From an uncultured Candidatus Saccharibacteria bacterium (GTDB lineage: Bacteria > Patescibacteriota > Minisyncoccia > Phycocordibacterales > UBA9973): a DNA stretch of 64,000 nt. The translations under genes were made by a program, and so were the position numbers. The DNA lies in the NCBI GenBank assembly GCA_964631935.1, contig CAZWAV010000001.1:116482-180481 (forward strand). Reading direction: 5' to 3'. How positions within the stretch are numbered: position 1 is the first letter of the stretch; the number at the start of each line of letters is the position of its first letter. Below the pieces are notes generated by a model that saw only the letters and a program-made list of their open reading frames with translations, was not told the origin of the DNA and did not search any database. Positions 1,417-54,781 of this stretch are shown in pieces.

Positions 1417-2832
1417 ATGGATAAAAAATATTACACTACAATAGGATTAGAGATACACGCAGAACTAAACACAAATTCAAAAATGTTTTGTGGTTGTGTT
1501 AATGATGCTGACGAAGAAAAGCCAAACGTAAATATTTGTCCTGTGTGTACAGCTCATCCAGGAACACTACCTGTCATAAATAAAAAGGCAGTAGAGAGCG
1601 TTATTCGTGTGGGTCTTGCTCTTGGCGCCAATATCGCTGACTTTACAGAATTTGATAGAAAAAATTATTTCTATCCTGATATTCCAAAAGCTTACCAGAT
1701 ATCTCAATATAAGTATCCAATAGTATCAGGTGGCGAATTAAATGGAGTTAAAATTACACGCATTCACTTAGAAGAAGACACCGCAAACAATAAACATGAT
1801 AGGGGGGATTATTCTTTGGTTGATTTTAATCGTGCAGGACTACCTCTTATGGAGCTTGTAACTGAGCCAGTTATCCATAGCGCAAAAGAAGCAGGAGATT
1901 TTGGAAGAGAACTCCAACTCCTTCTTCGCTACTTAGGAGTATCGGAAGCGAATATGGAGAAGGGTCAAATGCGCGTAGAGCTTAATATTTCAATATCAGA
2001 AGATCTAAATACTCTCGGGACTAAATGCGAAGTGAAAAATATAAATTCATTCCGTGCTGTTGAGCGTGCAGCTGAATATGAAATAAAAAGAATGACAGCA
2101 CTACTTGATGCTGGTAAAGGTACAGATATAGTACAGGAAACTCGTGGCTGGGATGAGAACAAGCAGTCCACTTTCTCACAGCGATCTAAAGAGAATGCAA
2201 ATGATTACCGTTACTTCCCAGACCCAGATCTACCAAAGCTCTATCTGAACAAGGCTTTTGATATAGAAAAATTAAAAAAAGAATTACCAGAGATTCCTTC
2301 AGTTAAACGTGCTCGATATAAAAATGATTACGGGATAAAAGACGAGGATATAGAAAGTTATGTAACAGATACAGAACTTGGTATTTGGTTTGAGGATATA
2401 GCTAAAATCTTAAATGATAAAGAGAAGATAAAAGTTGCTTCAAATTATATAACTTCTGATTATACAGGACTTAAGAAAAATAACATCGGTGTTAATCCAC
2501 CCAAGGCTTCAAATTTTGCTGAACTTATAGACATGGTAGCCGAAGGCAAGATTTCATCTCGCTCTGCGAAAGATATTTTAGCTAAGATTGTCATAGACGA
2601 TGGTTCTCCGCTTGAAATTGCAACTCACCTAGACTTAATCCAGAAAAATGACGAAGGTGCACTAAAAGAAATAGTCCAAAAAATCATAGATAATAATCCT
2701 GATATCGTAGCGACATATAAAGGGGGTAAAGAGAATGCCCTCATGTCTTTGGTTGGTCAAATAATGAAAGAAACAAAAGGATCAGCTAATCCTGCTATTG
2801 TTCAGAAGCTTCTAAAGGAGTTGATTAAGTAG
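1417..2832 (+). CDS. gatB: Asp-tRNA(Asn)/Glu-tRNA(Gln) amidotransferase subunit B
   Basis: The track ORF 1309..2832 begins inside the tRNA. The conserved GatB sequence starts at MDKKYYTTIGLEIHAELNT (ATG 1417), with a typical GatB core and a C-terminal YqeY-like tail. Confidence 0.9.
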   Translation: MDKKYYTTIGLEIHAELNTNSKMFCGCVNDADEEKPNVNICPVCTAHPGTLPVINKKAVESVIRVGLALGANIADFTEFDRKNYFYPDIPKAYQISQYKYPIVSGGELNGVKITRIHLEEDTANNKHDRGDYSLVDFNRAGLPLMELVTEPVIHSAKEAGDFGRELQLLLRYLGVSEANMEKGQMRVELNISISEDLNTLGTKCEVKNINSFRAVERAAEYEIKRMTALLDAGKGTDIVQETRGWDENKQSTFSQRSKENANDYRYFPDPDLPKLYLNKAFDIEKLKKELPEIPSVKRARYKNDYGIKDEDIESYVTDTELGIWFEDIAKILNDKEKIKVASNYITSDYTGLKKNNIGVNPPKASNFAELIDMVAEGKISSRSAKDILAKIVIDDGSPLEIATHLDLIQKNDEGALKEIVQKIIDNNPDIVATYKGGKENALMSLVGQIMKETKGSANPAIVQKLLKELIK

Positions 2833-2835
2833 AAC

Positions 2836-2864
2836 TTGACAGATTTAAGTTTAATATATATAAT
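2836..2864 (+). promoter_or_regulatory. sigma70-type promoter TTGACA-17nt-TATAAT immediately after gatB stop
   Basis: TTGACA at 2836..2841, exact 17-nt spacer, TATAAT at 2859..2864. Confidence 0.55.
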
Positions 2865-2870
2865 CCTTTT

Positions 2871-3225
2871 TATGGGTATGAAGTTTATAAAGTGACTTCT
2901 AGACCTGGGGATTAAAGACCCTCCGTATACACGGAGGGTCCTAATTTAAAAATTTTGATCTTTGTTGATAGGGCCGCTATTGGTCCATTCATGTTGGTTG
3001 TTTTAAGGGTTAAAGAGGATTCCCCTCGGTTTTCCGGGGGGAATTTATAAAAAATTTGATCTTTCTAAATTATTTAAGATGCAAGTGTTTGTTTCAGAGA
3101 ACAAACGGCTCTCTTTTTTATAAGGATAAGTAGAGAGCCATTTTAAATCTTTTCTCATATAGCAGCTTTAGCAACTGCATAGTTTTGGTAAGGCCTTTCT
3201 GGAAACAGAGAGGCTTTTTTATTTA
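2871..3225 (+). ncRNA. candidate non-coding RNA (~350 nt, unknown family) between gatB and the DUF1653 gene
   Basis: No ORF of 60 aa or more. It is bounded by a consensus promoter and an intrinsic terminator. It contains two perfect or near-perfect 10-bp GC-rich hairpins (2917..2940 and 3020..3043), each followed by a conserved AATTT(A)AAAATTTGATCTTT box. Confidence 0.3.
3193..3224 (+). terminator. rho-independent terminator
   Basis: Hairpin GCCTTTCTG-gaaa-CAGAGAGGC followed by TTTTTTATTT. Confidence 0.5.
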
Positions 3226-3246
3226 TAAACCTGATATAATTTAACT

Positions 3247-3471
3247 ATGGAATCAAAAGTAAAACTCGGCAAGTATAGACATTTTAAAGGGGGTACAGTG
3301 GAAGTCATTGGTGTCGCCAAAAACTCTGAAAATTATGAGGAGGAATTTGTCGTTTATATCCATCCATATGGAGGTCATGATCAAATATGGATTCGCCCAG
3401 TGGCTATGTTTGGAGAGTTTGTAGAACGTGATGGTCATAAAGGTCCAAGATTTGAATATATAGGTGAATAA
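3247..3471 (+). CDS. DUF1653 family protein
   Basis: 74 aa. Family-typical KYRHFKGG...VVY...G...WIRP...F...PRFEYIGE pattern. Confidence 0.55.
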   Translation: MESKVKLGKYRHFKGGTVEVIGVAKNSENYEEEFVVYIHPYGGHDQIWIRPVAMFGEFVERDGHKGPRFEYIGE

Positions 3472-3487
3472 ATGATATAATTTTGCT

Positions 3488-4534
3488 ATGAAATTATTTA
3501 AAAAGGATTCTAAAAAGATTCGCGTAGCTATTAATGGATTCGGGCGCATTGGCAGAGCATTTGTAAAAGTTGCTTGGGATAGACCAGAGATTGAAATTGT
3601 TGCTGTAAATGATCTTGGATCACTAGACTCACTAGCTTATCTTCTAAAACATGACACTGTATATCGTAACTGGAATCATGAAGTAAAGCATGATGGTAAG
3701 AATATATGGATTGATGGCAAAGAAGTTCATTTCGTTTCTGAAAAAGATACAACAAAGCTTCCTTGGAAAGATTTAAATATAGACGTAGTTGTTGAATCGA
3801 CTGGACTCTTCACTTCATATGATAAAGCAAAATTCCACATTGATGATGGTGCGAAGAAAGTAGTTATTTCTGCTCCGTCAAAAGGTGGAGAAGGGAATGT
3901 CCCAGGCGAAACAATACTTCTCGGTATAAATGAAGAAAAGTTTGGCACATGTGATATAACTTCAAATGCATCTTGTACGACAAATGCTGCTTCTCCTCTT
4001 ATTGGAATTCTTCATGAAGCTATTGGTATAGAGAAAGCAGTTCTTTCAACTACCCATGGATATACAGCATCTCAATCTCTTGTAGATGGTCCAAGCAAGA
4101 AAGACCTCCGTGAAGGCCGTGCAGCAGCTCAGAACATTGTCCCAAGCTCAACTGGTGCTGCTATTGCAGTCACTGAAGCTTTTCCAGACCTTAAAGGCCT
4201 ATTTGATGGTATATCTCTTCGTGTACCAGTACCTGCAGGATCTATAGTAGATATTACATTTATCTCAAAGCGTCCGACTACAGTTGAAGAAGTAAATAAT
4301 ATTTTAAAGAAAGCAGCAGCAAGCGAAAAGTGGAGTACATTATTTGCTATTACAGAAGAGCCATTAGTTTCAAGTGATATTCTCGGTGAATCTCATGCTT
4401 CAATTGCAGACCTTGCTATGACTCGCGTTATTGGAGGCAATCTTGTGAAAGTCCTCGGTTGGTATGATAATGAAATGTCTTACACTCACACACTTGTAGA
4501 CCATGTTATAAAGACAGGGAATACTATAAAATAA
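3488..4534 (+). CDS. gap: type I glyceraldehyde-3-phosphate dehydrogenase
   Basis: 348 aa. NAD-binding INGFGRIGR and the catalytic region SNASCTTN. Confidence 0.9.
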   Translation: MKLFKKDSKKIRVAINGFGRIGRAFVKVAWDRPEIEIVAVNDLGSLDSLAYLLKHDTVYRNWNHEVKHDGKNIWIDGKEVHFVSEKDTTKLPWKDLNIDVVVESTGLFTSYDKAKFHIDDGAKKVVISAPSKGGEGNVPGETILLGINEEKFGTCDITSNASCTTNAASPLIGILHEAIGIEKAVLSTTHGYTASQSLVDGPSKKDLREGRAAAQNIVPSSTGAAIAVTEAFPDLKGLFDGISLRVPVPAGSIVDITFISKRPTTVEEVNNILKKAAASEKWSTLFAITEEPLVSSDILGESHASIADLAMTRVIGGNLVKVLGWYDNEMSYTHTLVDHVIKTGNTIK

Positions 4535-42727: not shown

Positions 42728-43849
42728 ATGTCTAAAAATCGACGAAGAATCATAATATTAATATGTCTTATTATAATAATCGTATTGGTAGCGGGTGGAA
42801 TTAGAGCTTCAAATGAGAAAAAGCGTAAGTTTCAAGAATTAACTGCGCAGGTACAGGGATACTCTACGACAACATCACAGAGAGTGAATAGCGCTGTTAT
42901 TACTCTCCCTGAAGAAAATACTCTTGTTGGACTACAAGATGGTAAAGGATCTTATAAACTTAAAAACTCAAAAAATGAAGGAGTAGTCATAATGGAGAAT
43001 AATTACCTAAAGACTCAATTTGTAGAAGGTATATATAAGAAAAAAGATCCAAGGCAAGATGCTATAGCCCCTATGACAGTAAGTGGTGATTCACATAACG
43101 GATCAACATATTTAATCCTGTTTAACGACCGAGGAGATGCGGCGATTGAAAAGTCATATGCTTGGATAGGTGGAGATGATAATATAATCATAGATAGTAT
43201 TAAAACATTACCTGCTGATAAAAAAGATGAGGAGTACAAAGTTGATCTATTTTATCGAAAAGATAATAAACCAAAAGAGTTAACCATACCTGTTGTGGAT
43301 GGGCACTTTAAACCAGAGGTTGATAAATCAGAGGCACCAACCAATGGCACTGCACCTTCAACACCAAGCACTACTCCACCAAAAACAGCAACGAACAACA
43401 ATCCTCCAGTAAAACCTACAACACCATCATCGCCCGTAATGTGCACCATGGAAGCCAAAGAATGCCCAGATGGATCTTTTGTAGGGAGGTCTGGCCCTAA
43501 ATGTGAATTTGCAATATGTCCTTCACCTCAGCAATCAACAAGCGCAGTAATTAATCAGAAGATATTTAGTAATGGAATTTACATAACACCACTTGAGATA
43601 GTGGAAGACAGCAGATGTCCAGCTGGTGTGAATTGTGTCTGGGCAGGTAGACTACGAATAAAAGTAAAATTAGAGAGGGGAGGACAGACCAATGAAGTCA
43701 TGACTGACCTTGGAGTAAACTCTGTAGTATTTATGGGAAAGAAAGTCACTCTTGTAAGAGCAACTCCAACTCCTAGACCAGCAGACGCTGTGCCATCAGG
43801 AGATTATAGATTTGAGTTTTCTGTAACCGACAAAGCAAGCCAGAACTAG
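42728..43849 (+). CDS. hypothetical secreted protein with T/P-rich linker and Cys-rich C-terminal region
   Basis: 373 aa. N-terminal TM, a PSTPSTTPPKTATNNNPPVKPTTPSSP linker and 6 Cys near the C-terminus. Confidence 0.45.
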   Translation: MSKNRRRIIILICLIIIIVLVAGGIRASNEKKRKFQELTAQVQGYSTTTSQRVNSAVITLPEENTLVGLQDGKGSYKLKNSKNEGVVIMENNYLKTQFVEGIYKKKDPRQDAIAPMTVSGDSHNGSTYLILFNDRGDAAIEKSYAWIGGDDNIIIDSIKTLPADKKDEEYKVDLFYRKDNKPKELTIPVVDGHFKPEVDKSEAPTNGTAPSTPSTTPPKTATNNNPPVKPTTPSSPVMCTMEAKECPDGSFVGRSGPKCEFAICPSPQQSTSAVINQKIFSNGIYITPLEIVEDSRCPAGVNCVWAGRLRIKVKLERGGQTNEVMTDLGVNSVVFMGKKVTLVRATPTPRPADAVPSGDYRFEFSVTDKASQN

Positions 43850-44004
43850 CGTTTCTTTTCTCTCCAATCGTATTCTTCTTCCTCATCATCTTTCTTATCC
43901 ACAATAGGAGTACCACAATTAGCACACTCTGTATCATAAGAACGCAAACCACATCTTGGACAAACTGGTTCTTTCTTTTCTTCTTGTTCAATTTCTTCTT
44001 CCAT
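43846..44004 (-). CDS. unannotated small acidic zinc-ribbon protein (52 aa)
   Basis: Hand-translated: MEEEIEQEEKKEPVCPRCGLRSYDTECANCGTPIVDKKDDEEEEYDWREKKR. CPRC...CANC. It shares a palindromic CTAG stop with the convergent upstream gene. Confidence 0.3.
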   Translation of the reverse strand: MEEEIEQEEKKEPVCPRCGLRSYDTECANCGTPIVDKKDDEEEEYDWREKKR

Positions 44005-44167
44005 ATATAAAGAATATATTATAAAAGTAAAAGTTTTGCAAAATTTTTCTATCTACATGCTATAATATATTTATTATTAATAAAATAATTTTTAAATACA
44101 TATGGCAAAAGGAATGGGTGCTCGCAAAGAAAAGAAAAAACCAAAAGCTGCAAAGAAGAAATAAATA

Positions 44168-44205
44168 CAAAACACCCCTCCGATTTCTCGGAGGGGTGTT
44201 TTGAT
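44168..44205. terminator. strong bidirectional intrinsic terminator
   Basis: CACCCCTCCGA-tttc-TCGGAGGGGTG with flanking A-run and T-run, between a K-rich mini-ORF and csp. Confidence 0.6.
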
Positions 44206-44210
44206 ATCGC

Positions 44211-44408
44211 TTACGCGCGTTGTACGTTTACAGCACTAGGTCCCTTTGCAGTTTCCTCAGTGTCAAAAGTAACAGCGTCACCTTCACGTAGTTCGTCGAA
44301 CTGTACGTTTACAAGAGAGTTACTGTGAAAGAATAAATCCTTCGCAAGTCCTTCTGCTGTGATGAAACCGAAACCTTTATCAGTAAGCTTTTTTATTGAG
44401 CCAGTCAT
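44211..44408 (-). CDS. cold-shock protein (CspA family)
   Basis: 65 aa. RNP1 KGFGFI and RNP2 VFFHS-like motifs. Confidence 0.85.
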   Translation of the reverse strand: MTGSIKKLTDKGFGFITAEGLAKDLFFHSNSLVNVQFDELREGDAVTFDTEETAKGPSAVNVQRA

Positions 44409-44696
44409 GATTTTAGTTTAGATAAATGATAATTACAAATAAGATGAATGTTCGAAAGTCGACTCTTCTAAAGATACCCTTACGTGGCGCAATTATACAA
44501 TTTACAGATTTTTTTGTCAATGATTGTTTATGAGATAGGGGATAGTGCCTTTAAGTAAAGACCATAAAGCTTGACAATGTAAGCTCTAGATGCTATTCTG
44601 TAGAAGTTGAAATACTCCTTAGTGCGTGTCATAAGTGTTTCAATTTTGTCTCAACTCGAGGCAATTATTTATTTTTGAAACACGTAAAATTTAATT

Positions 44697-46079
44697 ATGG
44701 CTACATATAGCAAACAAGGCCCAAAGCGGGCTTCTTCATATTCATCTGGACCAAAGCGTGGTCCTTCAAGTCGTCCAAGTTCAGGAGGTCATTCTTCGGC
44801 TCGACCATCTAGTTATAAACCTGGAGCAAGATCAGGTGCTAGTACTTCACATAAGCCTTCATTTGGCTCAAAACCTTCATATAATAGCCACAGGCCACAC
44901 GGTGGGGCCGCACGACCATCTTTTGGTGGCAACCGAAGAAGTGGTGGTGGTAGAAAGAAAGGTAATTCATTTGAACGTATTGATGTTTCTCGATTTATAA
45001 GCAAAGCTACAATAATAGAAAAGGAGGAGATTTACATACCAACTCATACATTCTCAGATTTCGCTATTGATGAAAAACTTAAAACTGCAATCGCAAATAA
45101 ACAATACATTTACCCAAGTCCAATCCAAGACAAGGCTATTCCTCATGCCTTAGAAGGACGAGACATATTAGGTATAGCAAACACTGGTACTGGTAAGACA
45201 GCAGCATTTCTTATACCTCTTATAAATAAAGTTTTAAAGAACCCAAAAGAGACAGCTATCATAATCGCTCCAACTCGCGAGCTAGCACTTCAAATCGAAA
45301 AAGAATTTATTGAATTCACGAGAGGTATGAAGATGTGGTCTGTATCATGCGTAGGAGGCGCACCAATATTTGCCCAAATTAAAAATCTACGTCGTGGATG
45401 TAACTTTGTAATAGGTACACCAGGACGACTTCTAGACTTAGTAAAGAGAAAAGAAATAGATCTATCAGACACTCGTTCAGTTGTTCTTGATGAAGCAGAC
45501 AGAATGCTCGATATGGGATTCATTGAAGATATTAAATTCCTATTAGAAAAAACTCCAAAAGATCGTCAGAGTTTCTTTTTCTCAGCAACCCTTCCAAAGC
45601 CGATCGAAACACTTATTAATACATTTGCAAATGATCCAGTACGAGTACTAGTAAAGACTCGGGACACTTCAAAGAACGTGGAGCAAGATGTCATCCGCGT
45701 TGCTCGTGGAGCTGAAAAGATAGATGTACTATCTGAACTACTTTCTGGTCCAGAATTTAAGAAAGTTGTTATATTCTCTGAAATGAAACATGCAGTAGAG
45801 AAGCTGTCTGTAGAACTTATCAAAAGGGGATTCAAAGCAGGATCTATACACGGTGACAAGCGTCACAATGAGCGTCAGCGCACTCTAAAGCGATTTAAGG
45901 AGGATGAACTGAATATCCTTGTAGCTACCGACGTAGCGGCTCGTGGACTTGATATTCCAGATGTCACTCATGTTATAAACTACGAAATACCTCAGACTTA
46001 TGATACATATGTCCACCGCATTGGCCGAACTGGCCGTGCAAGCAAGAAAGGCGTAGCGCTTACATTTGTTGGAGCGTAA
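44697..46079 (+). CDS. DEAD-box ATP-dependent RNA helicase with N-terminal R/S/G-rich low-complexity region
   Basis: 460 aa. Q-motif, Walker A ANTGTGKT, DEAD (VLDEADRM), SAT and HRIGRTGR. Confidence 0.85.
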   Translation: MATYSKQGPKRASSYSSGPKRGPSSRPSSGGHSSARPSSYKPGARSGASTSHKPSFGSKPSYNSHRPHGGAARPSFGGNRRSGGGRKKGNSFERIDVSRFISKATIIEKEEIYIPTHTFSDFAIDEKLKTAIANKQYIYPSPIQDKAIPHALEGRDILGIANTGTGKTAAFLIPLINKVLKNPKETAIIIAPTRELALQIEKEFIEFTRGMKMWSVSCVGGAPIFAQIKNLRRGCNFVIGTPGRLLDLVKRKEIDLSDTRSVVLDEADRMLDMGFIEDIKFLLEKTPKDRQSFFFSATLPKPIETLINTFANDPVRVLVKTRDTSKNVEQDVIRVARGAEKIDVLSELLSGPEFKKVVIFSEMKHAVEKLSVELIKRGFKAGSIHGDKRHNERQRTLKRFKEDELNILVATDVAARGLDIPDVTHVINYEIPQTYDTYVHRIGRTGRASKKGVALTFVGA

Positions 46080-46153
46080 TTGATTGACATTTATAGATTA
46101 GAAATGTATATTATTTTCGATATCAGTTTTTTTAACCAATAAACCAACTTGTT

Positions 46154-46390
46154 ATGGGAAGCAATAAAAAGCCATCCAAAACGTTAAAGAAAAGATTAGC
46201 TACCACAAAATCAACCAAGGCCCGAACTCATCAAAAAAAGGCAATAGTTGAAGCCAGCAAAAAGAAGAAGCTAAAATCAGAAGGAGATGAAGTTCATTTG
46301 CAAGACAGCAAAACAGTTAATGGCAAAAGAATTCCTCGTTACATTCAAAAAGAAGAGGAGGAAAATAAACTGCTAAGGAAAACTGCTTAG
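46154..46390 (+). CDS. hypothetical K-rich basic protein
   Basis: 78-aa ORF. Confidence 0.3.
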   Translation: MGSNKKPSKTLKKRLATTKSTKARTHQKKAIVEASKKKKLKSEGDEVHLQDSKTVNGKRIPRYIQKEEEENKLLRKTA

Positions 46391-46437
46391 GTTTTGTTAA
46401 ATAAAATAACAGGTGAGGTGATGATCCATGCAAAAAG

Positions 46438-46468
46438 GCCGGGTACAGCAATGTATCTGGCTTTTTAT
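46438..46468 (+). terminator. rho-independent terminator (plus strand)
   Basis: GCCGGGTAC-agcaat-GTATCTGGC (with G.U pairs) followed by TTTTTAT. Confidence 0.4.
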
Positions 46469-46482
46469 CTATTCAAGTAAAT

Positions 46483-46517
46483 AAAAAACTGGCAGAGGAC
46501 TTTCGTCATACCAGTTT
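46483..46517 (-). terminator. sequence-conserved GNRA-capped hairpin terminator element, copy 2
   Basis: AAAAAA-CTGGCA-GAG-GAC-TTTC-GTC-A-TACCAG-TTTT. On the minus strand the stem change gives a G.U wobble. Confidence 0.45.
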
Positions 46518-46538
46518 TATCAAAAACCCCAATTTATT

Positions 46539-46991
46539 TTAACCCTTTTGAAGCATATATACCCCAAAAATAATAATTACTATACTGAATACTTTTTGCA
46601 TACTTATATGTTCTCTTAAAATTATCCAAGCGAACAATGTAGTAGCAACCGGCATCAGGCAACTTATCATAACAACGTATTTTGATATATCAAAACCTGA
46701 GTTTGATGACAGCAAAGAACTGTATGTTACCATCCCAATACCATTAAGAATTGCGGCTAAGGTTATGATCATCAATCCTTTTGGTGTAGCACCTGTTGAT
46801 ATCTGAATATCATTTTTTAAGTACATATAGGCAATAGCTGTTAGTGCTGTCACCAGGCAAATGAAAAAGGTTATTGTGGAGGGTTGTAACTTAGACATTT
46901 TGGCAAGATTAGGCCAAATTGACCAAACAATGACGCAAGTCAAGGTAAGAGTTAGTGGATTTTGCATGAGCTTATTATTTTTATGGTTCAA
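46539..46991 (-). CDS. hypothetical integral membrane protein (4 TM, possible small transporter)
   Basis: 150 aa, hydrophobic throughout. Confidence 0.4.
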   Translation of the reverse strand: MNHKNNKLMQNPLTLTLTCVIVWSIWPNLAKMSKLQPSTITFFICLVTALTAIAYMYLKNDIQISTGATPKGLMIITLAAILNGIGMVTYSSLLSSNSGFDISKYVVMISCLMPVATTLFAWIILREHISMQKVFSIVIIIFGVYMLQKG

Positions 46992-47318
46992 TTAAATTGA
47001 GTTTAGTGTACATCATTTTTCAATTTTGTCAAATATATAAAATTGCAAAAAATATCTTGAGTGTTAAAATAGCTCGCGACTAATATTTAATTAGTCACAC
47101 TCACATAGGGAAGTCGCTTTAACTTTAATTAGTGAGCGGCTTTTCTGTTTATATATACGTGTGATGCATATAAACCTTTATTTATAAAAATATAAAGAAC
47201 AAATCGTTATTATAGCTTATATGAAAAACCCAATGTAACGTCGTAAAAGATATATTGTACGACACTCATATATAAATAAAGCCTTGGCCTATAAAGGCTC
47301 AGGTACCACTTCCCTAGG

Positions 47319-48254
47319 CTAGTTTTTAGACCCAGAGGTATTAGTTGATAGACATGTATTAAATGCACGAACTCCAGTATTGTATTCCGAAATTTTTTGT
47401 TTCAAATCTAAAATCATTTGATTATATTTTAAGACAAGTGAGTTGTAATCAGTAATCTGCTCATTTGGGGTCTTCCCTGCGTATATTACCCCACTATCTA
47501 TCTTGCTACGTCTAAGGCTTAGATCAGTCTCTAGAGTCTTAAGATCTTTTTGGTTGAGTTTAATAATTCCATGCAAAGCTTCATTTATAGAAGGACAAGC
47601 ACTCCTTGGTAGGCCAAAATGCTGAACAGCGAGCCATGTATCATGACCATCGAACATTCCACGCCCCACAGCGACACCTATTTCGGTATAACTTTTATTT
47701 AAAATATTTGCGCGATGTCCCGGACTTGCCATCCATGCATCAAGAAGAGCTTTGGCGTCTTTAAAATTACCTAATGCAAGATTCTCTCCAATAACAATAT
47801 ATTCGTATGATACCCTATCACCTAAATCAGAAACTCCTATTCCATCTGGAGATATGTGCTCAAAGTATTGTTGTTTGAACATATCATTTAATTTTAACTG
47901 AGCAGAGAAATCTAATTTAGAATTTTCTTTAAGCGCTAGTAAATTACCATTGGATGCTCTGTTTGAATTTGTTAAAGCTATGACATCTTTTACTGAGAGC
48001 TTTACATTTGCTGTATCAGAAGTAAGACTATCTGTTACCTTCAAGGCTCCTGGTGTAATTACTTTCTTTAAAAGACTAGATACTTGCTCAGCTTTTATTA
48101 GTATATTGTCTTTTGTAGTACTATCTGGGTATTTATTTATCTTCCCTTCTATATAAGATACCGCACGATTATAGGCGACTTTAACATCATCTTTGACAAC
48201 AAATAGTGATAGTAAAACAAATATTATTATTATGATTTGATAAGAAATTTTCAT
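47319..48254 (-). CDS. secreted CAP/SCP/PR-1-like domain protein
   Basis: 311 aa. N-terminal signal/TM and a C-terminal CAP domain (GENLA...SPGHRANIL...YTEIGVAV). Confidence 0.6.
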   Translation of the reverse strand: MKISYQIIIIIFVLLSLFVVKDDVKVAYNRAVSYIEGKINKYPDSTTKDNILIKAEQVSSLLKKVITPGALKVTDSLTSDTANVKLSVKDVIALTNSNRASNGNLLALKENSKLDFSAQLKLNDMFKQQYFEHISPDGIGVSDLGDRVSYEYIVIGENLALGNFKDAKALLDAWMASPGHRANILNKSYTEIGVAVGRGMFDGHDTWLAVQHFGLPRSACPSINEALHGIIKLNQKDLKTLETDLSLRRSKIDSGVIYAGKTPNEQITDYNSLVLKYNQMILDLKQKISEYNTGVRAFNTCLSTNTSGSKN

Positions 48255-48257
48255 AAA

Positions 48258-48656
48258 TTATTTACATGATGTTGATGGACTGTAGCCTGATTTCTCAGCA
48301 TCCGAAGCAGTATCGAACCAGACTTTATTTTCTTCTTTTATTCTATTGGCACCTTTGCATGATGCACTATAATATAGTTTACCATTTTTTGAGGCGACAT
48401 AGTTACCCTCTTTTGAGATATTTGTACCTTGAGATTGTTTTTGTTTTACAGTAGAATAATTTCTTAAACTTTTTTCTTCATTTGCTACAACACTAGTGCT
48501 TTTTATGGAGCCAGGATAGACCTTATCTATCATAGATAGTCTCCCCAAACCAAAAGAAGAAAAACCCACTAAAATAAGGATAATAAGGTATATGGGCATA
48601 AAATTGCCATTTGCCATGCCCCTCTTGATTTTATGCAGGAAGTCATGTATACTCAT
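48258..48656 (-). CDS. hypothetical membrane-anchored protein
   Basis: 132 aa. N-terminal TM and 2 Cys in the C-terminal part. Confidence 0.4.
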   Translation of the reverse strand: MSIHDFLHKIKRGMANGNFMPIYLIILILVGFSSFGLGRLSMIDKVYPGSIKSTSVVANEEKSLRNYSTVKQKQSQGTNISKEGNYVASKNGKLYYSASCKGANRIKEENKVWFDTASDAEKSGYSPSTSCK

Positions 48657-48706: not shown

Positions 48707-48979
48707 ATGGCACATAGGAAGGCCGGCGGTTCCGCCAAAAACTTAACAGACTCAAATCCAAAGTACCTCGGTACTAAGCTTTACGCTGGCGAAAAGGCAA
48801 AAGCAGGATCAATAATTATCCGCCAACGTGGTACTAAAATCCTACCTGGTAAAAACGTAGCTATGGGTAAGGATCATACCCTATTTGCTCTGACTCCTGG
48901 TACAATTAAATTCGGCACAAAGAGAAAAGTAAACTTTAACCGAACCTCTTCAGTCAAAAAAATCGTTCACGTAATATAA
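48707..48979 (+). CDS. rpmA: 50S ribosomal protein L27
   Basis: 90 aa. [13 protein letters not shown]-terminus. Confidence 0.9.
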
Positions 48980-48982
48980 ATA

Positions 48983-49010
48983 AAAACCTCAACTAAAGTT
49001 GAGGTTTTTA
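48983..49010. terminator. bidirectional intrinsic terminator
   Basis: AAAAACCTCAAC-taaa-GTTGAGGTTTTTATTT. The T-run overlaps the stop of the convergent repeat-protein gene. Confidence 0.55.
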
Positions 49011-50879
49011 TTTACAAGAATTATTTATAAATCCAATTGTAACTTGTCCAACATATCCATCTGATTGGATATTAAAGTATGTCTGCATGCGTTTTATTGC
49101 TTTCTCTGAGATAGGCCCCAGATTGCCATCCTCTTTACCTGCATTAAACCCAAGTCTATTTAAATGGGCCTGGAGTATTTTAGCTTCTTTCACAATTCCT
49201 TTCGTATAAGAATTATATTTACCATCTACTGATCCCAATTTTAATTTTTGAGTTATCAATCTATCAGGAGCACAAAGTTGTACCACCTTATCAAGGCTAT
49301 TAAACTGATCTGGGAATTGCTTTATGATTGCGTCTGCTGCTTGCGTATTACCTATGGCAAGCAGATTTTGCACCCGACTCTGAGCGGTCGAATGGCTACT
49401 CCTACTCGATACGGTTGTACTACACGTTGTACCACCATCAGTAATAGTCCAACCATACGTACTGATAATACTTGCTCTTTGGGTAGCTGATGTACAATAC
49501 GTACTATTTCCTCCATCAAATGTTACATTTGATTTCAAAGCAAGTGCTGACCATTTTGTAATAAGTGCATCATAGTTTGTAGTAGAGAGTTTTACTCCAT
49601 TAAACATATTATTCATATAACTAACATTCGACACATCCCAATCACTAATATCTTGATCAAAAGACACTGCACTATCAAACAGGCTCGATAAAGACAGGAG
49701 GTTTGATACATTCCACGAATTTAATGGCTGATTAAATGAGGTTGCGCTATTAAACATTCCTTCTATTGATGAAGAAGATGATATATCCCAAGAATTTAAC
49801 GGTTGATTAAATGAGGTTGCTTGCTGAAACATAGAATCCATACTAAGTACATTTGATACATTCCACGAGTTTAAAGGTTGATTAAAAGATGTCGCACCAC
49901 TAAACATATACCCAATATCTACTACAGAAGACACGTTCCAAGAGTTTAATGGTTGATTAAAAGATGTCGCACCATTAAACATACTATTCATACTCTGTAC
50001 ATTCCCAACATTCCATGGGTCTAATGGTTGATTAAAAGATGTCGCTCCTTCAAACATACTACTCATGTCTGTTACTGAAGAAGTATTAAAATCATTTACA
50101 ATCCCATTAAACGAAGTTGCCCCTTTAAACATATTACTCATATTAGTCACTGACGATGTTGTTGTCCAGATAAAACCTTGATTAAAAGATGTCGCTCCTT
50201 CAAACATACCACCCATGTTTGTTACTGAAGAAACATCCCAACTTCCTAGATATTGATTAAAAGACGTTGCCCCTTTAAACATATTACTCATATTTGTTAC
50301 AACTGGGGCAAACCAAAAAGCAATACCAGAGTTATTAAAAGATGTTGCTCCTTCAAACATGCTACTTACAGTAGTAACATTTGTAAAATCCCAAGAAGAA
50401 GTATCAGGATTGACAGATGTCGCATCTCGAAACATCCCACTCATATCGGTCACAGTAGATAGGTTAGGTGCATCTCCGGCATTTATCACAAGATTGTTCG
50501 CCCCATAAAATGCATTGGCCATAGAAGTCCACACCTGGGAGCCCCATGACTCTACAGACAATATTTTACTTTTGTCTCCTCCGTTATTAAAGTATATACG
50601 TGGAAACGCCCCAGAAATAGTGATCGTATATGTTCCCGGAGATGAGTAAGTATGAGTGATGCTCCCTGTCACACCAGTATTCGAATTAGTATCCCCCCAG
50701 TTAACAGTATAGTTGTAAGTATCGCCAGTATGTGTAGGTATTGTTATTTGATTTGAAGTAGATACTCCCGGATTATCAGTCTTCCATGTTGTAATAAATT
50801 CACCTACAGCAAAAGCACTCTTTGGTAATATGAGTATGTTTAAAAATATAAAGAATAGAATATATGTTATTTTTTTCAT
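49008..50879 (-). CDS. large secreted surface protein: signal peptide, PKD/Ig-like N-domain, ~11 tandem 26-residue repeats (DUF285/TIGR02167-like), C-terminal peptidoglycan-binding domain
   Basis: 623 aa. The unit ...MFxGATSFNQPLNSWNVSxVxxMxx... has a 26-aa period. The C-terminus carries a PG_binding_1-like region, LNRLGFNAGKEDGNLGPISEKAIKRMQ. Confidence 0.7.
   Translation of the reverse strand: MKKITYILFFIFLNILILPKSAFAVGEFITTWKTDNPGVSTSNQITIPTHTGDTYNYTVNWGDTNSNTGVTGSITHTYSSPGTYTITISGAFPRIYFNNGGDKSKILSVESWGSQVWTSMANAFYGANNLVINAGDAPNLSTVTDMSGMFRDATSVNPDTSSWDFTNVTTVSSMFEGATSFNNSGIAFWFAPVVTNMSNMFKGATSFNQYLGSWDVSSVTNMGGMFEGATSFNQGFIWTTTSSVTNMSNMFKGATSFNGIVNDFNTSSVTDMSSMFEGATSFNQPLDPWNVGNVQSMNSMFNGATSFNQPLNSWNVSSVVDIGYMFSGATSFNQPLNSWNVSNVLSMDSMFQQATSFNQPLNSWDISSSSSIEGMFNSATSFNQPLNSWNVSNLLSLSSLFDSAVSFDQDISDWDVSNVSYMNNMFNGVKLSTTNYDALITKWSALALKSNVTFDGGNSTYCTSATQRASIISTYGWTITDGGTTCSTTVSSRSSHSTAQSRVQNLLAIGNTQAADAIIKQFPDQFNSLDKVVQLCAPDRLITQKLKLGSVDGKYNSYTKGIVKEAKILQAHLNRLGFNAGKEDGNLGPISEKAIKRMQTYFNIQSDGYVGQVTIGFINNSCK
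49440..50370 (-). repeat. ~78-bp tandem coding repeats (about 11 units) inside the surface-protein gene
   Basis: Protein-level 26-aa periodicity. The DNA units are degenerate. Confidence 0.6.
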
Positions 50880-50940
50880 TAGAAGCTCTCATATTATAAC
50901 ATAAAATGAACATAGAAAATTAAATTTACAGGGAATATAC

Positions 50941-51384
50941 TTATTTCTGAGCTTCTACAAGTATTTCACACTTCCCTACTTTGTCACCTTTTTTGATTGT
51001 GACCTTGTGAGATCCTAATTCTTTTATATGATCTATGACGATAGAATGCTCATCGATGGTGATACCAGTATTTTTTTCTATAGCAGAAGCAACATCGTGA
51101 GCACTAACTGATTTAAATAGATGCCCTTTTTCGTTGGCTTTAACAAAAATTGTAATCTTTTTATTGTCTATGGAAGAAATAAGTTCATTAAATAGCTTAC
51201 TTTCTTCTTCTTTCTTTTTATTCATTCCGGCCTTCTTGGCTTCCAGTCGTGCAAGCGCTTGTGGAGTCGCAAGTTCTGCTAATCCTTTAGACAAGAGTAC
51301 ATTTTGAGCATAACCTTGGGCGAAATCTTTTACATCATATCTATTGCCAACTTTAGGAATATCTGTAAGTAATATAACTTTCAT
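50941..51384 (-). CDS. rplI: 50S ribosomal protein L9
   Basis: 147 aa. MKVILLTDIPKVGNRYDVKDFAQGYAQN. Confidence 0.85.
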   Translation of the reverse strand: MKVILLTDIPKVGNRYDVKDFAQGYAQNVLLSKGLAELATPQALARLEAKKAGMNKKKEEESKLFNELISSIDNKKITIFVKANEKGHLFKSVSAHDVASAIEKNTGITIDEHSIVIDHIKELGSHKVTIKKGDKVGKCEILVEAQK

Positions 51385-51390
51385 ATTTAA

Positions 51391-52611
51391 TTAAGGTTTA
51401 GCTGTTAATATTTCGACAGCTTTATCCATCTGTGGATCTTTCTTTGCGTCAAAATCTTTTTGTGTAAATGGGACACTTACATCTGGATCAAGACCATGCT
51501 CTGATATAGATAGACCATTAGGAGTTAGCCATCTTGCTACTGTGACTTTCAATGATGTGTCTTCTGTAACTGGTAGTAACTCCTGCACAGATCCCTTACC
51601 AAAAGTCCTAGTACCTACTAGAGTCGCTATGCCATGCTCTTTTAATGCACCAGCTAGTATTTCGGCAGCAGAAGCCGAACCACTATCGACAAGTACAACG
51701 AAATCAAGTTTATCATCAAATAATTTTGGTCCGTGACTACGATAGACTACGGGCTTTTTATTTTGACCAAAGTCTTCGCTTACTATTGTCTTACCTTCAT
51801 CTATAAATAGAGAACCAATGTTTACTGCTGCATCGAGGTATCCTCCTGGATTGCCACGCATATCAAGGACCAATTTATGAGATCCAGAAGATATAAATCT
51901 ATCTATTGCACCCTTGAATAGGTTCGCTGAATTCTCTGAGAAGCTATAAAACTTTATGACAAATATATTGTCTGCACGTAATTCTGTATCTATAGTAGGA
52001 ATCTCTATGTTCTCTCTTATCATTTTAAATTCACGAGTTGTACGCTCTCCAGGCCGAAGGATGACAAGTGTTACTTCAGTGCCTTGTGGCCCACGAATAA
52101 GATTAATAGCTCCATCTACAGTCATATCAGTAGTTTCTGTTTTGTCTATTTTTAATATCTTATCTCCAGACTTTATTCCAGCTTTTGAAGATGGTGTATC
52201 TTTGAGTGGAGAAATTATAGTTAACAATTTGTCTTTAATACCAATCTCGGCACCTATTCCTCCAAATGAGCCGTGAATTTCTTCGTTGAATAACTTATTC
52301 TCTTTTGGTGAGAAAAATACTGTATATGGATCCCCTAGCGAAGAAGCCATACCTGAAATAGCACCATAGACACGATCTTGATCAGTGACTTTGTTTGCGT
52401 AGATAGATTTTTCATTTAACAAATTCCAAACTTTCCAAAAAGAATTAAAGTCAGCTTTATTTTCAGCTGGTACTTCTTTATTTGTGACAGATAGGACTTT
52501 TTCTATTTCTGGTCTGCGAGAATATCCTACATATGTACCCAAACTAAAAACCCCTCCAATAAGTACTATGGATACGATTATATAGATTAGTGTCTTTTGA
52601 TTTTGTTTCAT
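51391..52611 (-). CDS. ctpA: carboxyl-terminal processing protease (S41 family) with PDZ domain
   Basis: 406 aa. N-terminal TM, a PDZ domain, and the S41 catalytic region GSASAAEILAG...K. Confidence 0.85.
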   Translation of the reverse strand: MKQNQKTLIYIIVSIVLIGGVFSLGTYVGYSRRPEIEKVLSVTNKEVPAENKADFNSFWKVWNLLNEKSIYANKVTDQDRVYGAISGMASSLGDPYTVFFSPKENKLFNEEIHGSFGGIGAEIGIKDKLLTIISPLKDTPSSKAGIKSGDKILKIDKTETTDMTVDGAINLIRGPQGTEVTLVILRPGERTTREFKMIRENIEIPTIDTELRADNIFVIKFYSFSENSANLFKGAIDRFISSGSHKLVLDMRGNPGGYLDAAVNIGSLFIDEGKTIVSEDFGQNKKPVVYRSHGPKLFDDKLDFVVLVDSGSASAAEILAGALKEHGIATLVGTRTFGKGSVQELLPVTEDTSLKVTVARWLTPNGLSISEHGLDPDVSVPFTQKDFDAKKDPQMDKAVEILTAKP

Positions 52612-52631
52612 TAGGTCTAATTATCGCAAAA

Positions 52632-53858
52632 TTATTGCTTGATTTCAAGGTCGAGCGCAGAAGGCGTATACTTATTCCTTGGGTCCCACAACATCCATGA
52701 ATTAAGACCATTGTCATACACAGCTTTCATCTCAGAGCGAATCATAGCGCCTGTGTAAGTAGCCCCTAAATTGAAGTCTTGTAGCCAAGGACGTATCTTA
52801 TGAATATCTTGACCAGGAACCGCGTTAGTCTTTTTAACAGCACCACTTAGTGCTTTATGAATTATTTCATACGGGTGATCAGCTGGGTTCTTGAATCCAT
52901 CTTGACCACTAGGATAATGAGATGGGTAGACCATTGGTGCTAAATAATCAAAATATGGTAGAGCTTTTTCCCAGACTTGGCCGATTCCCATATCATCTGT
53001 CGATTCAGTTGTAAGACCGAAGAGATCTGCTGAAGTTATGATATTATCATTCTTTTTCACTTCTGTTGATAAATATTCAAAGAATGCTTTCAAGTTATCT
53101 GATCTTGTTGCACCAGCAGCGAGATGGTAATTGATATCTTTTATATTTCCATCTGATGGGTAACGGATGTAATCGAAATTGATCTCATCAAACCCTTCTG
53201 CATATGCATCATGAGCAATAGCAACTATATACTTCCAGACTTCTTTATTTGCTGGATCAAGGAATGATAAACCTTTATTGTCTTTCCAAACTTTTCCATC
53301 ACTTTTACGAGTTATAGCCCACTCAGGCTTTGCTTTAGTCATGTATGGATCTTGGAATACAGCAACGCGACCGATTATATAGATATTTTTTTGATGGAGC
53401 ATGTTTGTAAGACTGCGTATGTCTGAAATACGTCCTTCTACAGAGCCGAAATTATTTAAGTCTTTACTAGATGTCTGAAAACTAATTCTACCTGTAGAAT
53501 CTTTTACATCGACAACAATAGAATTGAGCTCAGTGTCATCTATGAGTTTTATAATGGGGTCGCGATACTTTGAATTACCAGCAACCCAACTTGATATGTA
53601 TACTGCTTTCACCGCAGATGGAGTCTTGATATGTATTACGGGCACAGGAGCAGGTGGCGTAGAAATATTAGCTATTGGGGGAGTAACGACATCTATGGGT
53701 TTATTACTATCTACTATTTCATTACTCGTAGTGGCTTTTAAGCTATTGTACTCAACTTGTCCCGTAAACATTGGCCATTCATAATAAACAACAACCCCAC
53801 ATACTACTAGTGTGAGGCTTGCAAGTAAAACTTTTTTCTTATTTTTCGTAAATGGCAT
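52632..53858 (-). CDS. putative TIM-barrel glycoside-hydrolase-like protein (GHL/DUF4015-like), membrane-anchored
   Basis: 408 aa. N-terminal TM, a P-rich linker, then a domain with alternating beta/alpha character. The family assignment is tentative. Confidence 0.4.
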   Translation of the reverse strand: MPFTKNKKKVLLASLTLVVCGVVVYYEWPMFTGQVEYNSLKATTSNEIVDSNKPIDVVTPPIANISTPPAPVPVIHIKTPSAVKAVYISSWVAGNSKYRDPIIKLIDDTELNSIVVDVKDSTGRISFQTSSKDLNNFGSVEGRISDIRSLTNMLHQKNIYIIGRVAVFQDPYMTKAKPEWAITRKSDGKVWKDNKGLSFLDPANKEVWKYIVAIAHDAYAEGFDEINFDYIRYPSDGNIKDINYHLAAGATRSDNLKAFFEYLSTEVKKNDNIITSADLFGLTTESTDDMGIGQVWEKALPYFDYLAPMVYPSHYPSGQDGFKNPADHPYEIIHKALSGAVKKTNAVPGQDIHKIRPWLQDFNLGATYTGAMIRSEMKAVYDNGLNSWMLWDPRNKYTPSALDLEIKQ

Positions 53859-53859
53859 T

Positions 53860-54072
53860 TTATTCCCCGCTTCCTATATTATCTACAAATGTTTTGCTTA
53901 TATCAGCTTCTGGCATATTTTTCTTGGCCTGCATATAAAAAAGGTATCCTATATACATTATAGTCAAACCAGTAATAACAAAAAGGAATGTTCGCCACAA
54001 GGACGGGAACCCAGAAAAAGGTAACAATATTACCCATAAACCTATTATCAAAAGTGCTCGTTCTTTTCTCAT
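53860..54072 (-). CDS. hypothetical small membrane protein
   Basis: 70 aa with two TM helices. Confidence 0.35.
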   Translation of the reverse strand: MRKERALLIIGLWVILLPFSGFPSLWRTFLFVITGLTIMYIGYLFYMQAKKNMPEADISKTFVDNIGSGE

Positions 54073-54091
54073 ACAAATTATTATAGCTTAT

Positions 54092-54781
54092 TTACCTGGG
54101 AGCGACAATAACAACAAACTCCCCTCTTTGCTTGTCTTTATTAGTATTAAAATATTCAATAACTTCCTTTGATGTACCCCTAATAAACTCTTCAAACTTT
54201 TTTGTAATCTCTCGAGCAATGACTATTTCACGATCAGGAATTGATTCATCTAGAGATGACAATGTTTTCATCATTCTATGAGTAGACTCATAGAAAACCA
54301 CCATTTCTTTCTTGAGAGCAATCTCCTTAAATAAAGTAGATCTACCCTTCTTGTGTGGCAAAAATCCCAGGAAAGTAAAGGAAGCTGAGGATACACCACT
54401 AGCAGAAAGACTCGCAATAAGGGCACTTGGGCCGGGTATAGGCACAACCTTTGCATCTTGACCAAGCTCTTTATAAACATTTGATACTAGTAGTACTCCC
54501 GGATCAGAGATACATGGAGTTCCAGCATCTGAAACAAGAGCTAGATTCTGGCCTTCTTTTAGCATGCTAATAATCTTAGATTCTTTAGCTCCAGTGCTAT
54601 GTGCATGATAACTCATACTTTTTGTATGTATATCATATCGATCGAGCAAATTCTTAGTGGTGCGAGTATCTTCACACAAAATACAATCCACTTCTTTAAG
54701 CACGCGAATAGCACGAAGAGTAATATCTTCAAGATTCCCTATTGGAGTGGCTACTATAAAAAGAGTACCTATACTATTCAT
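54092..54781 (-). CDS. rsmI: 16S rRNA (cytidine1402-2'-O)-methyltransferase
   Basis: LFIVATPIGNLEDITLRAIRVLKEVDCILCEDTR. Start placed at MNSIG. Confidence 0.85.
   Translation of the reverse strand: MNSIGTLFIVATPIGNLEDITLRAIRVLKEVDCILCEDTRTTKNLLDRYDIHTKSMSYHAHSTGAKESKIISMLKEGQNLALVSDAGTPCISDPGVLLVSNVYKELGQDAKVVPIPGPSALIASLSASGVSSASFTFLGFLPHKKGRSTLFKEIALKKEMVVFYESTHRMMKTLSSLDESIPDREIVIAREITKKFEEFIRGTSKEVIEYFNTNKDKQRGEFVVIVAPR

Follow-up and report, generated by a model that had tools for sequence, protein, structure and literature searches.

A DUF285 repeat protein with a putative peptidoglycan-binding C-terminus, encoded by a single-gene cassette that varies in presence and length among strains of an uncultured Patescibacteria population

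A 64,000-nt stretch of contig CAZWAV010000001.1 (positions 116,482 to 180,481, the window hereafter), from an assembly of an uncultured Candidatus Saccharibacteria bacterium, carries between rplI and rpmA a gene for a 623-aa repeat protein of the DUF285 family, which forms a single-gene accessory cassette. This cassette is present in some relatives and absent from others at the same site, and it occurs in two length alleles that differ by two repeat units. The product is probably a Sec-exported binding protein, anchored in the wall of its own cell and equipped with a ligand-binding solenoid that varies from strain to strain. The protein type is well known, with thousands of database homologues automatically named 'BspA family LRR (leucine-rich repeat) surface protein', and what gives the locus its modest value is that both its presence and its copy number are polymorphic in a population of uncultured Patescibacteria, bacteria in which candidate attachment proteins can seldom be pinned down. 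A clean single-gene polymorphism of this kind, with two length alleles among near-identical strains, lends itself as a marker to the question of whether the repertoire of surface proteins in such populations follows host association. The gene and the parts of its product are the following:

49008..50879, minus strand: DUF285 gene, coding sequence of 623 aa plus stop, intact open reading frame (ORF)
50808..50879, minus strand: putative signal peptide, aa 1-24, MKKITYILFFIFLNILILPKSAFA, with an AxA cleavage site and no lipobox (rule-based)
50514..50807, minus strand: N-terminal beta domain, aa 25-122, PKD-related, with NWGD and HTYxxPGTYT motifs, running into the first repeat
49608..50513, minus strand: twelve tandem DUF285/PARCEL units, aa 123-424, of 25 aa each except two of 26, predicted LRR-type solenoid
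49416..49607, minus strand: degenerate 13th unit and helical C-terminal cap, aa 425-488 (LSTTNYDALITKW...YC...WTITDGGTTC), by family consensus
49275..49415, minus strand: linker, Ser/Thr-rich and short helical, aa 489-535, with low to medium confidence in the structure prediction and not conserved in the homologue P0039
49011..49274, minus strand: candidate C-terminal wall-binding module, aa 536-623, with Cys536, a beta extension, the PG_binding_1 three-helix bundle and Cys622

The ORF is intact on the minus strand, as the preliminary description had stated, with its ATG placed three codons past an in-frame stop, and its product is identical to a protein encoded on a 360-kb contig of an NCBI assembly (P0001). 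By hidden Markov model criteria the protein is a bona fide member of the DUF285/TIGR02167 (PARCEL) family: DUF285 (PF03382) was matched in the Pfam scan at 390.5 bits against a cutoff of 25 (E=9e-119, in 5 stretches), which puts the repeat signal far above chance, and TIGR02167, now 'PARCEL repeat-containing surface protein' in NCBIfam, at 36.4 bits against a cutoff of 30 (in 6 stretches). PG_binding_1 (PF01471) was matched at 50.8 bits against a cutoff of 23 (E=2e-13, aa 566-615, profile positions 5-54 of 57), so that both the family and the C-terminal domain first proposed for this gene were recovered. Structure prediction with AlphaFold2 (AF2) rendered the repeats as a right-handed curved LRR-type solenoid with one turn per repeat, matching solved LRR proteins, and the C-terminus as a three-helix bundle resembling solved PG-binding domains, the closest folds including the endolysins 5nm7 and 3bkh. 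A sequence search of the PDB gave no relative (best E=0.14), and only the fold comparison was informative. The two helices of the cap (residues 433-444 and 465-475) were predicted with a local confidence (pLDDT) of about 98, and its Cys462 and Cys486 are kept across the family.

The N-terminus combines MKK, a 15-residue hydrophobic stretch and PKSAFA|VG, which judged by rule corresponds to a Sec type-I-like signal peptide, as had been anticipated, and AF2 placed a helix at residues 2-16 of this region. The PKD/Ig-like domain described next to it stood in part: seven beta strands were predicted with pLDDT >90, and homologues with the same N-domain pass the PKD cutoff at equivalent positions, partly by summing two modules, but the scores of the present protein were sub-threshold in Pfam (PKD 19.6 bits, cutoff 23.5; PKD_4 21.8 bits, cutoff 27; aa 49-89, covering only the profile middle, about positions 26-66). 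The domain is best regarded as PKD-related, here without Pfam-grade PKD membership. The Pfam scan found no Por_Secre_tail and no Gram-positive anchor family, and the sequence holds no LPXTG, lipobox or transmembrane (TM) segment. A lipoprotein was ruled out by the lack of any Cys in the first 461 residues, the first one being at residue 462, together with a score of 210.2 bits, far short of the 500 required for the Mbov_0838 lipoprotein family (NF045896), of which the protein is not a member. An enzyme was ruled out as well, no catalytic family being matched in the Pfam and NCBIfam scans. The solenoid is acidic (K+R 6, D+E 22), the anchor is basic (K+R 13, D+E 7), and the protein ends in ...INNSCK.

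The main argument for the roles of these parts comes from the exchange of modules among homologues. A profile of the anchor tail retrieved 10,553 cluster representatives at E<=0.001, of which 287 remained at E<=1e-30, and in most of the best matches this anchor subtype formed the C-terminal end of a protein of 400-1900 aa. In nine anchor-bearing proteins that were scanned, the passengers were unrelated to one another, comprising GH18, beta-helix/NosD, PD40, PA14, LamG, GLUG, InlB B-repeat and Ig-like domains. Among 36 DUF285 homologues, 14 carried the sorting domain of the type IX secretion system (T9SS) and five PG_binding_1, which suggests that they bear an anchor suited to their own envelope. 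Such swapping of modules argues that the tail anchors and the solenoid binds. The modularity of the family shows in the partners of its binding module, which bears a T9SS tail in Bacteroidota, is lipid-anchored in Mycoplasma, precedes a PG_binding_1 tail here and is fused to a histidine kinase in one metagenome-assembled genome (MAG) of Saccharimonadota.

The combination of DUF285 with PG_binding_1 is already represented in databases (P0039, P0016, P0079 and P0087). P0039 (632 aa, 48-50% identity; L078 955-2853, Logan SRR12404947_281878) is the closest full-length homologue of the same architecture, and its contig, with a GC content of 42.5% against 36%, derives from the same sequencing run as the strain of the window, which points to a second organism there with a DUF285 and PG_binding_1 protein. 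In two further contexts (L079 and L080, around P0121 and P0087), DUF285 and PG_binding_1 genes were found near a DsbD-like/thioredoxin fusion and DsbB, a proximity to disulfide genes that may fit extracytoplasmic Cys-containing products or may be a coincidence.

The second body of evidence concerns the cassette itself, whose features are:

48990..50940, minus strand: single-gene accessory cassette of 1951 bp between rplI and rpmA, made of the 5' spacer, the ORF and most of the terminator
50880..50940, minus strand: 61-nt spacer from the rplI stop to the ATG, with a putative promoter of its own and ribosome-binding site
48979..49012, both strands: bidirectional intrinsic terminator, a perfect 15-bp hairpin followed by a T-run either way
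50178..50209 and 50028-50059, minus strand: longest exact repeat within the gene, of 32 bp, in two copies spaced by 150 bp
49580..49990, minus strand: central repeats, units 8-12, the variable zone and site of the 150-bp length difference from the sister strain

The cassette was found in the window, in four related contigs (L081, L170, L174 and L177) and in the Logan contig L077, whereas L082-L086, L175 and L176 have the corresponding rplI-rpmA site without it; five cassette-less contigs were found in addition to L082-L086. In L082, L083 and L084, whose flanks, like those of L175 and L176, are about 90.5% identical in nucleotides, similarity to the window breaks off at the rplI stop (50941) and picks up again from 48989, and about 21 bp with a different hairpin stand in place of the 1951 bp. 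The gap between rplI and rpmA measures 28-32 bp in the cassette-less relatives, being 28 bp in the more distant L085 and L086, and in the cassette-less L175 and L176 the L27 protein is identical. Gain of the cassette in the lineage of the window and L081 appears more parsimonious than loss, because nearer and more distant outgroups are both without it. A further contig, L087 (7630-8075; JGI 3300045378, Ga0490020_001363), shares its S41 protein with L085, diverges from it inside the 3' end of rplI and then runs into a fragment in which a Peptidase_M23 motif was matched slightly under the cutoff (28.4 bits); this contig is either chimeric or a further structural variant of the junction between rplI and rpmA.

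The length polymorphism was revealed by the sister strain L081 (JGI 3300045313, Ga0489987_000026), which is syntenic with the window and whose orthologue (2115-4169) is intact and codes for 684 aa, with 14 units and the cap. Relative to the window allele, it contains one stretch that is longer by exactly 150 bp (two units) near 49989, and its signal peptide is 11 residues longer. The JGI gene call on L081 covers the last 208 aa only (GTG start), leaving the DUF285 part invisible in the annotation; the full 684 aa are called on a near-identical contig from sample 3300045318. In the long allele, the two-unit block at aa 311-360 matches that at 361-410 with 88% identity, including 61 bp that are repeated exactly, which points to its origin by recent tandem duplication of a 150-bp block. 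A scan of metagenome contigs returned distant relatives only (<=55% identity) and no further alleles.

The array comprises units starting at aa 123, 149, 174, 200 and 225 and then each 25 residues up to 400, followed by the degenerate one at 425. The preliminary description, which had counted about 11 tandem repeats of 26 residues, was right about the array and about the pattern MFxGATSFNQPLNSWNVSxV, but not about the number, which is twelve plus the degenerate cap, nor about the period, which is 25 aa (75 bp), the 26-aa length being restricted to two N-terminal units. F2, A5 and S7 are invariant, M1, T6, F8 and N9 near-invariant, and positions 3, 4, 11-14, 21, 22, 24 and 25 variable. Tandem Repeats Finder gave 75 and also 150 bp as the period, at 69-77% matches. 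The DNA units had also been taken for near-identical ones of ~78 bp, and this did not hold: pairwise identity among the 75-bp units averages 55% and reaches 79% at most. Variation in repeat number, which had been predicted on that ground, does exist, as the two additional units of the sister strain attest, but the near-identity given as its reason fails for the present allele. No notable short-period tract was reported in the gene by Tandem Repeats Finder and the units are too diverged, with the longest exact repeat at 32 bp, so that a classical phase-variable contingency locus was rejected.

It is very improbable that the array was collapsed, expanded or joined chimerically by the assembler, so that the 623-aa product would not be real as such. 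Short-read graphs do break within the gene, since the Logan contig L077 (SRR12404947), 100% identical to 54379..50180 of the window, stops inside the 32-bp repeat, where a k=31 graph is expected to break; independent confirmation of the window allele thus covers its first ~700 bp, and the sister allele is 150 bp longer. Against this, the reading frame runs unbroken and in register through units that all measure 25-26 aa, and the divergence of the units allows reads of 100-150 bp to span them. Moreover, the central units of the window are 69-88% identical to those of the sister allele and are not a collapsed copy of it, and a second JGI sample independently yielded the 684-aa allele, with an equal number of repeats and 2 nt of difference, partial copies being found in two more.

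The substitutions between the window and L081 alleles, evaluated by the Nei-Gojobori method, were unevenly distributed. The neighbouring genes presented dN/dS values (nonsynonymous to synonymous rates) of 0.01-0.07 and the N-domain one of 0.05, and the PG-binding module accumulated 0 nonsynonymous and 4 synonymous changes, whereas repeats 1-7 reached 0.72 (16 nonsynonymous, 6 synonymous); owing to the small counts, these and the following values are to be read as a trend only. In the central repeats 8-12, whose alignment is ambiguous, dS rose to 0.715 against 0.05-0.09 elsewhere in the gene, ten-fold higher, and nucleotide identity to the sister allele dropped to 82-85% against 95-100% around them. 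This high dS suggests that the central repeats were replaced by recombination or gene conversion and not by point mutation. Synonymous divergence is about 0.10 on the downstream side of the gene and rises abruptly to about 0.45 on its upstream side, a step suggestive of recent homologous recombination among strains whose breakpoint lies at the 5' end of the gene. The identity between both contigs forms a mosaic, with 100% over 43008-47200, 95-100% up to 49580 and 88-95% beyond 51000, and the spacer is the most diverged part of all (68% identity, 30 bp of indels).

In the favoured reading, the protein would be exported by the Sec pathway and its signal peptide cleaved at AFA|VG; the basic C-terminal PG_binding_1 module would then grip the peptidoglycan of the cell itself in a non-covalent manner, probably stapled by a Cys536-Cys622 disulfide, and the flexible Ser/Thr-rich linker would push the acidic and rigid LRR solenoid outward. 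This solenoid would be built of the PKD-like N-domain, the 12 DUF285/PARCEL units and the helical Cys-containing cap, with M1, F2, A5, S7, F8, N9, W15 and V20 of each 25-aa unit forming the core and the variable positions listed above (3, 4, 11-14, 21, 22, 24 and 25) forming the ligand-binding surface. Its likely job would be adhesion to a partner cell or the binding of a surface polymer, the adhesin role being the one put forward from the outset, and its diversification would proceed by duplication or deletion of the 150-bp two-unit block and by replacement of central repeats.

The reverse topology, in which a released or loosely held protein grips the wall of a partner or host through PG_binding_1 and contacts its producer or another factor through the LRR, is unlikely. 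It would accommodate the absence of every covalent anchor looked for (LPXTG, lipobox and TM segment), the habit of Patescibacteria, which are widely thought to live attached to other cells, and the closeness of the predicted fold to 5nm7 and 3bkh, phage-endolysin PG_binding_1 domains being directed to foreign walls from outside or inside. However, this anchor subtype is found at the end of hundreds of large proteins that carry diverse passengers, as a general self-anchoring module would, and its strict purifying selection next to a varying LRR is the opposite of an anchor that tracks varying host walls.

A more passive role is improbable too, namely that of a variable coat or decoy whose solenoid shields the surface or is itself the target of phages or predators, its variation reflecting phage escape. 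Loci for phage receptors or antigenic variation typically differ in presence among close strains, show a raised dN/dS in their repeats and have a central block replaced, as is the case here, and the PARCEL proteins of Mycoplasma are variable surface antigens (PMC2996958). On the other side, the window holds this DUF285 ORF only, which also ruled out a paralogue family inside its 64 kb, and no silent-copy reservoir, invertible promoter or simple-sequence tract for switching was found; in addition, LRR solenoids, which account for all structural matches, are overwhelmingly ligand-binding scaffolds.

Several points weigh against the self-anchored binding protein favoured here. The signal peptide is putative, being judged by rule, and ligand, expression and localisation are conjectural for this as for any DUF285 protein of Patescibacteria. 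PG_binding_1 also occurs in enzymes and zymogens, without an anchor role there, and the bound wall may be that of the cell or that of its partner. The literature search found nothing linking DUF285 or PG_binding_1 to surface proteins of Patescibacteria or of the candidate phyla radiation (CPR), and the small substitution counts and ambiguous central alignment noted above belong here as well. Finally, DUF285 arrays would be binding or sensing modules and not necessarily adhesins, because a Saccharimonadota homologue has the module as the ectodomain of a histidine kinase. This homologue (L021 7524-12572, Candidatus Saccharimonadota MAG JBPOHZ010000008.1) is a 1682-aa protein with N-terminal TM segments, a long DUF285 array (E=3e-194), PKD and then a weak HisKA and a HATPase_c C-terminus, and by this architecture DUF285 is, in another CPR lineage, the predicted extracellular sensor domain of a two-component kinase.

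Regarding known systems, the protein resembles the DUF285/TIGR02167/PARCEL proteins (Roske et al. 2010, PMC2996958; e.g., LppQ and LppC of Mycoplasma mycoides and MbovP0145 of M. bovis) in its 25-aa (75-nt) unit with conserved hydrophobic and variable hydrophilic positions, in its predicted surface targeting and in its sporadic, accessory and strain-variable spread, which for that family suggested horizontal transfer. The punctate distribution of PARCEL genes recurs here as a cassette polymorphism among strains, with the closest relatives in Bacteroidota. Mycoplasma members are lipoproteins, with a lipobox and no cell wall, whereas the present protein has a type-I signal peptide and a peptidoglycan-binding C-terminus. 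No mobile-element gene adjoins the cassette, and reverse-complement k-mers (k=6-10, within 150 nt) were not in excess over synonymous-codon or codon shuffles, a test of dyad symmetry that differs from the MEME palindrome search of Roske et al. 2010; dyad arms in the repeat DNA were weak (71-80% complementary), and according to the same authors such symmetry can be worn away by divergence (PMC2996958). A precedent for ligand binding, in M. bovis only, is given by the DUF285 protein MbovP0145, which binds host beta-actin (PMC8707762).

The closest relatives are the Bacteroidota 'BspA family leucine-rich repeat surface proteins' (Flavivirga eckloniae P0014, Muricauda P0007 and P0030; 42-53% identity), which have the whole module in common, that is, the PKD-like N-domain (FITTWKTDN...WGDG...HTY), about 12 units and the helical Cys cap. 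These relatives often contain two modules (~1000 aa) and a Por_Secre_tail for outer-membrane attachment, whereas one module and PG_binding_1 are found here. BspA of Tannerella forsythia is built of ~23-aa LRR_5 (PF13306) repeats of another Pfam family, and hmmscan gave no match of the present protein to LRR_5 or any other LRR family even at E<=1; likewise, the crystallised Bacteroides BspA-like LRR 4fs7 (BACOVA_04585) is 12% identical and similar at fold level only. Listeria InlB also joins an LRR to non-covalent wall-association modules (GW), but internalins have a 22-aa LRR subtype, GW/SH3-like or LPXTG anchors and an inter-repeat Ig-like domain that the present protein lacks. In SleB, CtpB, phage endolysins, L,D-transpeptidases and Zn DD-peptidase, PG_binding_1 is attached to a wall-modifying enzyme, which is not the case here; the present subtype, which is extended N-terminally by a beta segment (NGxYNSYTKGIV) and flanked by two Cys, is located at the very C-terminus of many large non-enzymatic proteins.

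A more far-reaching conjecture, which is doubtful, sees in the cassette a strain-specific determinant of host attachment, newly acquired by a Paceibacterota episymbiont and consisting of a Bacteroidota-type DUF285 module whose T9SS domain was swapped for a Patescibacteria-type Cys-bracketed PG_binding_1 and which was recombined between rplI and rpmA. If this were so, cassette presence and two-unit repeat changes would set which partner cells a strain attaches to. A recent foreign insertion visible by composition was ruled out, the GC content being 36.3% in the gene and 36.8% in the window. Target-site duplications were not seen by eye at the cassette borders, and no transposase or integrase was found among the neighbours.

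The 61-nt spacer contains TGTTATAAT, an extended -10-like motif read by eye about 20 nt ahead of the ATG, and could serve as the cassette's own promoter; a consensus promoter and terminator scan was uninformative on the promoter and missed the terminator hairpin, which direct folding revealed. This terminator, of -17.1 and -17.3 kcal/mol on the two strands (RNAfold), overlaps both stop codons and is common to the DUF285 gene and the convergent rpmA, and each version of the rplI-rpmA locus has a hairpin of its own.

Housekeeping and envelope functions make up the neighbourhood, where rpmA and rplI are accompanied by genes for an S41 C-terminal processing protease, a DUF4015 protein, a CAP-domain protein and a DEAD-box helicase. 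Those homologues of the protease that bear a taxon name (70-76% identity) are assigned to 'Patescibacteria group bacterium' or 'Candidatus Paceibacterota', which places the window in Patescibacteria/Paceibacterota. Beyond rpmA, on the minus strand, the window codes for a small protein with a match to the Ada zinc-binding domain in its C-terminal part (48258-48656, 24.4 bits) and for a predicted secreted CAP/SCP-domain protein of 311 aa with an N-terminal hydrophobic segment (47319-48254), and both genes are kept in all relatives, with the cassette or without it. The DEAD-box helicase (44697-46079, plus strand) bears an N-terminal low-complexity extension of ~100 residues rich in S, G, R, P and K.

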